DNA of 10,741 nt from a virus, in the IMG/VR virus record IMGVR_UViG_3300010344_001762, positions 1-10,741 of that record. One strand, given 5' to 3'. The notes beneath the pieces were generated by a model. The model was not told where the DNA came from. It saw nothing but the letters and a program-made list of their open reading frames with translations, and did not search any database. How positions within the stretch are numbered: position 1 is the first letter of the stretch; every line of letters begins with the position of its first letter. Positions 7,969 through 8,343 of this stretch are shown piece after piece. Position numbers and translations under genes: made by a program.

Positions 7969-8343
7969 ATGAAGAAACCATTTTATTACTAGATTCATTC
8001 AAAACTTATCGTCATTACAAGACGAGATTTAGCCCCCGGAATTCAGGCTGTACAAGCTGCTCACGCAGCAATTGATTTCCAACATCAACATCCTTCTATT
8101 GCTCGCGAATGGAATACAAATTCCAATTATCTCATTTTCTTATCTGTACAAGACGAGCAAGAACTCAAAAAGTTTATTCAAAAATTTCAGATTTATGATC
8201 TCAGACATACTATCTTTGTCGAACCTGATTTAGATAATCAGATTACTGCGGTCTGTGTTGAACCATCTGAAAGGACTATGAAATTATGTTCTCATTTACC
8301 TTTGGCACTCCGTGAATTTAACGGGTCTTTAACGCAAGGGTAA
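7969..8343 (+). CDS. PTH2-family peptidyl-tRNA hydrolase-like protein, 124 codons. There is an in-frame TAG at codon 8 (7990-7992). Motifs ITRRDLAPGIQAVQAAHAAI, ...W...YLIFLSVQDEQELKKF, HTIFVEPDLDNQITAVCVEP.
   Basis: manual translation. The frame is open from ATG 7969 to TAA 8341 except for the single TAG. No alternative ATG, GTG or TTG start lies downstream of the TAG. PTH2 motif pattern RtDL...AQ.aHAa recognised. Confidence 0.6.

Follow-up and report, generated by a model that had tools for sequence, protein, structure and literature searches.

A probable gene-specific amber gate in a Pth2-like gene linked to a phage tRNA(CUA)

Can a stop codon at the 5' end of a phage gene be a codon for which the phage itself supplies the decoder? 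This question is raised by a 10,741-nucleotide (nt) stretch of phage DNA (IMG/VR record IMGVR_UViG_3300010344_001762, positions 1 to 10,741; GC content 36.6%), hereafter called the window, in which the gene for a Pth2-like (peptidyl-tRNA hydrolase-like) protein is interrupted at codon 8 by an in-frame TAG. The original prediction, made from the sequence of the window, took this TAG as evidence for amber recoding. We examined ~120 related phage loci, most of which show the same pairing of the TAG with a tRNA of anticodon CUA, termed tRNA(CUA). As to the TAG of this gene the claim stands, in that the codon is probably decoded as sense; as to the genome as a whole it does not, since the flanks show no sign of genome-wide recoding.

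A conserved TAG at the 5' end of the Pth2-like gene

As predicted, the reading frame extends from ATG 7969 to the terminal TAA and is broken only by the one TAG (Table 1). The 5' end of the gene reads ATG AAG AAA CCA TTT TAT TAC TAG ATT CAT TCA AAA CTT ATC GTC, and translation across the TAG gives MKKPFYY, the amber position and then IHSKLIVITRRDL.... No alternative canonical start is at hand, because the first in-frame ATG, GTG or TTG 3' of the TAG lies at about codon 104. The sequence 5' of ATG 7969 is A/T-rich and without a Shine-Dalgarno sequence, in keeping with its earlier description, and this ATG is the likely start: an in-frame ATG precedes the TAG in 60 of the 60 unique TAG contexts compared below. 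RNA folding around the ATG and the TAG revealed no significant structure (z = 0.06) and no read-through stimulator.

All 16 contigs of this phage group, which come from different samples and were assembled independently of one another, carry the identical TAG; a sequencing error is thereby ruled out. They form two lineages with 7% protein divergence and, in the leader, vary by one synonymous change only (AAG/AAA). When the whole window was compared with GenBank phages by megablast, and IMG/VR was searched with an exact 45-mer, there was no match. The list of open reading frames (ORFs) that accompanied the original prediction was empty in this frame, as it had remarked, and standard-code gene callers also pass over the gene (L011-L016 in our series of loci). 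Callers that choose a code for each contig label short contigs as code 15 owing to the single TAG. The 'Q' at the TAG site of P0001 came from such code-15 calling, and the entry "translates to query: no" was returned for all ten loci checked (L001-L010). The underlying DNA reads TAG; we therefore did not accept this 'Q', whether in P0001 or in further database homologues, as a sign that TAG stands for Gln, and regard it as an annotation artefact.

The assignment of the protein to PTH2 was borne out by profile and structure comparisons. The 116 amino acids after the TAG matched Pfam PTH2 (PF01981) with E = 3.5e-8 and 34.1 bits (curated cut-off, 23), from domain residue 4 onwards and over profile positions 2-101 of 115; they also matched PHROG 1866. 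A profile of the family matched archaeal and human Pth2 structures in PDB (best E = 1.1e-7, AF2095). When the AlphaFold model of the domain (predicted local distance difference test score, pLDDT, 91.7; predicted template-modelling score, pTM, 0.85) was used in a fold search of PDB, the top 14 matches were all Pth2/Bit1 (probability 1.00, template-modelling (TM) score 0.57-0.77, root-mean-square deviation 2.2-4.5 Å). In the model, strand beta1 comprises domain residues 5-10, in agreement with the claim that this strand begins right after the TAG. The TAG site is predicted to lie 4-5 residues ahead of beta1 in an N-terminal tail without structure, a place at which the protein should be able to accommodate any amino acid.

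We take the catalytic residues of Pth2 to be the Asp of the DAG motif and the Lys of the GK motif; the Lys of GK(L/I)A is reportedly catalytic in Sulfolobus Pth2. The invariant Asp D79 (EPD) of the 116-residue domain aligns to the DAG-motif Asp, and the position of the GK Lys is occupied by Ile in the window protein and by Tyr in the family consensus. Homologous domains are intact and under purifying selection, with the invariant motif residues kept. The phage family thus appears, from its sequence and predicted structure, to be Pth2-fold, with a putative peptidyl-tRNA hydrolase activity. It comprises 589 clusters (50% identity) at E<=1e-10 and is essentially phage-only. A search of 185,579 species genomes gave 12 matches, all on contigs of metagenome-assembled genomes that resemble mis-binned jumbo phages; 11 of the 12 (GC 24 to 64%) have the TAG, and 9 have a tRNA(CUA) within 4 kb.

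In IMG/VR, 329 related loci were confirmed after a profile scan. The counts below use the best 80 (46-99% identity), many of them from contigs of 200-675 kb, and, for codons and bases, the 61 unique sequence contexts around the stop. Of the 80 loci, 79 have an in-frame TAG at the corresponding position, 1-7 codons past an ATG, and the typical form is M-K-stop-I/V-N/H-x-K-L-x-V-x-T-R-R-D-L. The ATG-to-TAG distance is 2 codons in 39 contexts, 3 in 13, 4 in 6, 7 in 2 (the window group) and 1 in 1. TAG serves as the stop in 60 contexts and TAA in one (L056), TGA being absent, and an in-frame ATG stands 1-7 codons upstream in all 60 TAG contexts and before the TAA of L056 as well. Among stop codons in the same loci overall, TAA makes up 77%, TGA 16% and TAG ~8%. 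The codons beside the TAG vary synonymously (AAA/AAG, ACT/ACA/ACG, ATT/ATA/ATC, GTT/GTA). Because these adjoining codons turned over while the TAG was kept, the TAG itself is under selection.

The codon that follows the TAG is ATT, strongly favoured over ATA and ATC, in 37 contexts and GTT/GTA in 12, with interchange of Ile and Val. Such interchange points to a constraint at the amino acid level and suggests that this codon acts as a sense codon. It is ATT, ATA, ATC or GTG in 41 of the 61 contexts; a codon that is no recognised start (GTT, GTA, ACN, AAA, AGC, CTT) occupies the position in 20-21, including 9 in which it is inconceivable as a start (ACN, AAA, AGC, CTT). The +4 base is A in 47 contexts, G in 13, C in 1 and T in none; in E. 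coli, amber suppressors are favoured by A, then G, at +4. No homologue has TAG in place of any of the three invariant Gln codons of the domain. A second TAG deep within the domain, at variable positions, occurs in L032 and L094 only, TAG being otherwise absent. These internal TAGs are hard to reconcile with anything other than decoding as sense.

The pattern spans relatives at 30-99% identity, GC contents of 24-64% and contigs of up to 675 kb, and is shared by huge phages in GenBank (LR756500). The cultured cluster-C mycobacteriophages Bxz1 and Myrna have GAAGGC-ATG-TAG-GTG and GGAGGC-GTG-TAG-GTG, respectively, at this site, and the start of the gene given in GenBank is the GTG after the TAG; the enzyme of Bxz1 is gp154. 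We also scanned 1.4 Mb of flanking DNA, blind to gene identity, for an ATG followed within 8 codons by a stop and an ORF of at least 90 codons whose first canonical start is at least 25 codons in. The matches comprised 51 with TAG, 11 with TAA and 6 with TGA, and those with TAG were nearly all Pth2-like genes or four HNH-endonuclease chimeras; in these 1.4-Mb flanks, the signature of an ATG, a few codons and a TAG was not seen in other gene families. A recurrent peptidase-like family from the scan was rejected as noise with a low-complexity, Met-rich N-terminus. The four HNH-endonuclease ORFs (L031 9249, L041 1936, L042 1715 and L059 9178) start with a duplicated 5' end of the Pth2-like gene, including ATG-x-TAG-INHKLIIITRRDLHPGYQAVQ, and the intact Pth2-like gene lies just downstream. 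They look like insertions of a homing endonuclease with partial duplication of the target.

The linked tRNA(CUA) and relatives that have no gate

The tRNA of anticodon CUA that had been placed about 1 kb downstream of the Pth2-like gene was confirmed by ARAGORN and Rfam (Table 1). It is of elongator type, with the loop CUCUAAA, G1-C72, A73, a short variable arm and only two G-C pairs in the anticodon stem; CCA is not encoded. ARAGORN called a tRNA(CUA) on the same strand in 72 of 81 loci (the window and the 80), and most of the others are cut off near the gene; at L057 it overlooked an evident tRNA of anticodon CUA. Where the region from -600 to +2400 nt of the Pth2-like gene is fully covered, a same-strand tRNA(CUA) is present in 58 of 64 loci. 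Its position is immediately upstream of the gene in 31 loci and 0.7-1.9 kb downstream in 35. In Bxz1, it lies 300 nt downstream and is annotated 'tRNA-OTHER' (NC_004687, gt155); the downstream tRNA(CUA) of Myrna is annotated 'tRNA-Ser (UCG)' (EU826466, gene 86).

The 59 distinct tRNA(CUA) sequences are on average 60% identical, all with CUA, 47 with the loop CUCUAAA and most with A73. Isotype models were made by ourselves from the phage tRNAs of these loci, Lys and Thr models not being included. The best model was Trp for 24 of the 59, Met for 2 and Gln for 1; for the tRNA of the window, Trp scored 32.4 versus 29.6 bits, a small margin. This is weak evidence that the body of the tRNA is Trp-like rather than Gln-like. 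Nearly all of the 80 closest homologues carry the TAG and so point to no residue for this site.

Between the Pth2-like gene and the tRNA(CUA) lies orf110, which encodes a predicted three-helix protein (pLDDT 88.9). It was detected by tblastn in this arrangement in 26 loci, down to 34% identity, and is always directly upstream of the tRNA(CUA) in these loci, even where other DNA follows the Pth2-like gene. Searches of Pfam, PHROG and PDB folds gave no family match and no informative fold match for orf110, which may be a third component of the module. A stable hairpin precedes the tRNA and contains the motif TGGACAT in its arms. This motif has 6 copies in the window versus 0.96 expected (0 of 200 shuffles reach 6), with three direct copies upstream of orf110 (8440-8467) and an inverted pair (9003-9029) that forms the hairpin. 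TGGACAT was rejected as a conserved regulatory site because it is kept only in the closest relatives (L019).

Some relatives differ at the gate. L056 (10001, on a 675-kb contig) reads MKET-TAA-IYNRLYVITR, with TAA in place of TAG, and has no tRNA within 10 kb. In Prevotella phage Lak-B1 (L101, ~4900-5000), MNI-TAA-ISLVMKV... stands in frame before the Pth2-like ORF, and a tRNA(UUA) lies 600 nt upstream of that ORF. L056 and Lak-B1 may represent an ochre version of the same switch. Ungated relatives were found by queries with single proteins. A close one, at 83% identity, is L142 (JGI 3300014300 contig, 1595 nt; gene 42-443), whose N-terminus is MKRQLLMSDARSRAPIKIHPTL...; it reads MKRQLLMSDARSRAPIK-IHPTL... 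in frame, with an out-of-frame TAGATC remnant upstream, and orf110 and tRNA(CUA) are still found downstream. By manual, not computed, alignment, its residue at the gate site is apparently Lys. L142 represents either a genuine loss of the gate or an assembly artefact.

A second subfamily (L120-L140), from GC-rich phages, is also ungated; its N-terminus, MATIKMGDKLYLVTRRD, follows a basic extension of ~80 amino acids. One or two tRNAs are encoded on the same strand 0.3-2 kb downstream, with CUA in the loop or with the unusual loops AUUUCAAC or CUUCAA, which ARAGORN calls 'ttca', 'tc' or 'ttc'. The tRNAs with unusual loops probably present UCA or four-base UUCA and would be opal or quadruplet readers. 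Because this subfamily is ungated and yet tRNA-linked, the association between the enzyme and suppressor tRNAs is broader than the gate, which suggests that the Pth2-like enzyme operates together with phage suppressor tRNAs.

How the TAG is probably read

Conservation of the TAG, together with the presence of a tRNA(CUA) nearby, is best explained by decoding of the codon as sense. We consider it probable that the TAG acts as a gene-specific amber gate, such that production of the Pth2-like enzyme requires the codon to be read by the phage tRNA(CUA) encoded next to it; the role of this tRNA as the decoder of TAG 7990 is inferred. Ribosomes would start at ATG 7969 and reach the UAG at codon 8. 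Without a suppressor, release factor RF1 would release a seven-residue peptide, and no enzyme would be formed. Once the phage tRNA(CUA) is made, processed and charged, presumably by a host synthetase, it would supply a residue for the UAG, and complete Pth2-fold enzyme would be formed at a level tracking the suppressor/RF1 balance in the infected cell. The gate could serve to supply the enzyme in proportion to suppression, for the recycling of peptidyl-tRNAs from read-through and drop-off. It could also be that the enzyme acts on the suppressor tRNA itself, giving a negative feedback like the autoregulation of RF2.

Several points weigh against such a gate. Read-through is deduced from the comparison of sequences, and charging by a host synthetase is an assumption. 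The ATT found after the TAG in 37 of 61 contexts is a rare but real bacterial start, and in Bxz1 and Myrna the GTG after the TAG is spaced ideally from a Shine-Dalgarno sequence (GGAGG-7 nt-GTG), so that translation could plausibly begin directly behind the TAG in some lineages. L056 has TAA at the site and no tRNA in its vicinity. L110 and L142 have no gate and yet keep the tRNA(CUA), and the second subfamily, though ungated, is still located beside suppressor-type tRNAs. Because ungated relatives still adjoin such tRNAs, the linkage of enzyme and tRNA is independent of the gate. Furthermore, TAG ends 17 of the first 91 annotated genes of Bxz1 (19%), so that suppression must be weak, timed or context-dependent.

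The main rival of the gate is a leader mini-ORF of 1-7 codons, with termination at the TAG and re-initiation or a direct start at the next codon (ATT, ATA, GTG); the tRNA(CUA) would then be linked to the gene for another reason, e.g., as a substrate or partner of the enzyme. The strong bias for ATT over ATA and ATC would fit such a start, as would the GTG of Bxz1 and Myrna, which is at the optimal 7-nt spacing from GAAGG/GGAGG and is the start in GenBank. The TAA of L056, with no suppressor tRNA nearby, points in the same direction, and the ungated relatives beside suppressor tRNAs imply that the linkage has a basis other than gating. However, re-initiation predicts that the identity of the stop is irrelevant, whereas TAG was found in 60 of 61 contexts and TGA in none, which the mini-ORF leaves unexplained given that TAA is ten times commoner. 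It would also have to operate in 21 of 61 contexts without a recognised start after the TAG; the interchange of Ile and Val points to a constraint on the amino acid rather than on a start codon, and L032 and L094 have TAGs inside the domain. Initiation at the ATT after the TAG, an explanation that the original prediction had itself put forward as fatal to it, is thus weakened by the start-less contexts and the specificity for TAG, with ATT still frequent at the position, and we regard the mini-ORF as unlikely. Initiator tRNAs are characterised by three G-C pairs in the anticodon stem and a 1-72 mismatch. The tRNA of the window, with G1-C72 and two anticodon-stem G-C pairs, is without these hallmarks; Met was the best-scoring isotype for no more than 2 of the 59 tRNA(CUA) sequences, and the TAG always has an in-frame ATG shortly before it. 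It is therefore extremely improbable that the UAG itself is the start codon, read by an initiator-like tRNA(CUA), even though the loop CUCUAAA is like that of initiators and engineered amber initiator tRNAs start at UAG in E. coli, according to a preprint (10.1101/2024.07.29.605542).

Two further explanations deny the TAG a role specific to this gene. An error of sequencing or assembly, or a mutation that recently turned the gene into a pseudogene, would require only one C-to-T change, from CAG to TAG, and would agree with the failure of standard callers to find the gene. It is hardly conceivable in view of the 16 independent assemblies with the identical TAG, and of its recurrence in distant homologues (79 of 80) that have kept an intact domain under purifying selection. 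Genome-wide reassignment of the amber codon (code 15, TAG = Gln), with other TAGs in late genes outside the window, is the other. In its favour, the suppressor tRNA(CUA) is encoded by the phage, as in code-15 phages; none of the ~21-23 confident genes of this phage group (L011, L017 and L018) ends in TAG; gene callers picked code 15 on short contigs; and recoding confined to late genes is known, as a preprint describes (10.1101/2021.08.26.457843). Further in-frame TAGs were sought in L011, L018 and L021, from contigs of up to 38 kb (the longest found is IMG/VR 3300010350_001134, 37.9 kb), with ~20 kb apiece covered and late genes not included; the Pth2-like gene was the only credible case, the other candidates being antisense or over tRNA-like RNA. 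The many in-frame TAGs and the restored coding density of code-15 genomes were thus not seen within these stretches. In 70 loci, the gain in coding density with TAG as sense was no larger than that with TGA as sense, which served as the control; analysis of coding density and merged ORFs was negative for genome-wide recoding. The TAG is position-specific, with no invariant Gln codon replaced by it; the tRNA does not resemble a Gln tRNA (best model for only 1 of 59); and the TAG is shared by Bxz1, whose many TAG stops mark it as a user of the standard code. We consider code 15 improbable. Because a single gene is affected without an effect on density, and the same TAG occurs in standard-code phages, the TAG of the Pth2-like gene is a gene-specific amber codon and not a sign of code 15.

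Genomic setting and comparison with known systems

The features of the window that bear on the gate are listed in Table 1. A strong terminator-like hairpin follows the gene for a homologue of the major vault protein (MVP), so that the Pth2-like gene opens a new transcription unit.

Table 1. Features of the window around the Pth2-like gene (positions are those of the window)
Feature	Position	Strand	Remarks
MVP homologue, 848 amino acids	5287-7833	+	MVP_shoulder 2.3e-28, Vault_3 7.6e-13
Terminator-like hairpin, 12-bp stem and U-run, after MVP-like gene	7840-7872	+	Free energy (dG) -21.7 kcal/mol, z = -6.15; 0 of 200 shuffles as stable
Pth2-like gene (whole)	7969-8343	+	ATG 7969, TAG codon 8, TAA 8341-8343
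Start ATG and six leader codons (MKKPFYY) before the amber codon	7969-7989	+	
In-frame TAG, codon 8	7990-7992	+	Followed by ATT (+4 base = A)
Predicted Pth2-fold domain, 116 amino acids, and TAA stop	7993-8343	+	
orf110, predicted three-helix protein	8513-8845	+	tblastn matches in 26 loci
14-bp hairpin with TGGACAT in its arms, 5 nt upstream of tRNA(CUA)	8999-9033	+	dG -19.9 kcal/mol, z = -5.44
tRNA, anticodon CUA, elongator-type	9039-9111	+	ARAGORN; Rfam tRNA 68.7 bits, best tRNA score in the window
TROVE (Ro60/TEP1-like) gene	from ~10446 (L011 12158-13858)		2.6 kb downstream of MVP homologue

The window contains nine canonical tRNAs, and its genes include GIY-YIG and HNH homing endonucleases, the MVP homologue, two SiaC-like genes, a thioredoxin gene and the start of a TROVE gene. 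In longer contigs of this phage, a T4-like gp30.3, a dCMP deaminase and an NAD synthase are encoded as well. The cluster of MVP, Pth2-like gene, tRNA(CUA), thioredoxin and TROVE recurs in L024-L034, L043 and L048. MVP and TROVE are paired as in eukaryotic vaults; phage MVPs have been reported before (bioRxiv 10.1101/2023.11.10.566534). The gene-free gap at 9731-10446 could encode a small RNA. Weak tRNA- or tmRNA-like Rfam matches, not called by ARAGORN, are located at 338-513, which resembles a tRNA with a large insertion, at 1631-1755 and 1785-1836, and at 3853-3922 and 4022-4091, which are flanked by the two SiaC-like genes, within GC-rich DNA that gives spurious ORFs.

We see about an even chance that the pair of UAG and tRNA(CUA) is an ancient switch for a phage-specific Pth2-like enzyme, widespread from AT-rich jumbo phages to cluster-C mycobacteriophages. 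If so, the unexplained suppressor tRNAs of those standard-code large phages that have a gated gene would acquire their first specific target, and a tRNA together with one tolerated sense-TAG could be a foothold for the evolution of full TAG recoding. The locus would be a natural case of stop-codon read-through in one gene by a privately encoded tRNA, a possible intermediate of recoding and a ready-made orthogonal switch. That ungated relatives, too, are linked to CUA- or UCA-type tRNAs suggests that the enzyme is a general accessory of phage suppressor tRNAs. Cultured systems exist in the Bxz1-like mycobacteriophages of M. smegmatis, with 207 genomes in GenBank. Annotation is affected as well: the gene is skipped by standard callers, spurious Gln residues enter databases, and the tRNA(CUA) is mislabelled in Bxz1 and Myrna.

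The phage protein has the size and fold of archaeal and eukaryotic Pth2 (PF01981; PDB 3erj, 2zv3, 1q7s and 1xty), with TM scores of 0.72-0.77 to the crystal structures, and shares with them the xRxDL motif, the AxQxxHA helix and the EPD/DAG Asp. It differs in that the phage family is only ~20-30% identical to them and has Ile/Tyr in place of the GK Lys.

Among systems that handle stop codons, prfB offers a parallel within the translation apparatus. The autoregulation of RF2 involves an early in-frame UGA in its gene, a +1 frameshift and an internal Shine-Dalgarno sequence. Both prfB and the Pth2-like gene are translation-factor genes with a conserved early in-frame stop, and in both the full-length product would report the capacity of the cell to terminate or read through at that codon. 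In the phage gene, however, the reading would remain in the 0 frame, there is no Shine-Dalgarno-like element or structure, and a dedicated tRNA is encoded in cis. Two further likenesses are mere leads. The E. coli suppressor Su7 is a tRNA-Trp with a CCA-to-CUA change, and the commonest class of tRNA(CUA) is nearest to phage tRNA-Trp, one anticodon base away, with only a weak margin for Trp in the tRNA of the window. The minigenes of lambda bar yield peptidyl-tRNA drop-off products, which are substrates of Pth, and the two-codon leader ATG-AAA-TAG resembles these minigenes.

The closest relation is to phages with an altered code. Recoded (code 15) crAss-like, Lak and other phages encode suppressor tRNAs, as described in two papers (10.1101/2021.08.26.457843; PMC9523058); these deal with many TAGs in late genes and do not mention peptidyl-tRNA hydrolases. 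As in these phages, a phage tRNA(CUA) is combined here with in-frame TAG in a presumably standard-code host, and an in-frame stop has likewise been proposed to make expression suppressor-dependent. In code-15 phages, Gln positions are occupied by TAG tens to hundreds of times, above all in structural and lysis genes, and coding density collapses under code 11. We saw no such collapse, and the TAG described here is confined to one gene family, where it has a single conserved position; in addition, relatives such as Bxz1 still stop with TAG, and the tRNA is not Gln-like.

Standard-code large phages with a tRNA(CUA) and no known target have been described. For the jumbo phage XacN1, the targets of its CUA tRNAs were stated to be unknown (PMC5852040), and in AP-J-162 the CUA tRNA is labelled 'tRNA-Pyl' (PMC11242549). 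These studies sought only extensions past terminal TAGs, whereas the target proposed here is at the 5' end of a gene. The Pth2-like domain of XacN1 is fused in a larger protein (annotated ORF 840 nt, ~279 amino acids) and ungated, so that XacN1 is not explained by the module. Searches of open-access papers and bioRxiv brought up no account of a Pth2-like gene that is gated by TAG and has a tRNA(CUA) as its partner. Suppressor-dependent expression in phages is already known; in the locus studied here, it would be reduced to one conserved gene, an arrangement that is apparently undescribed.

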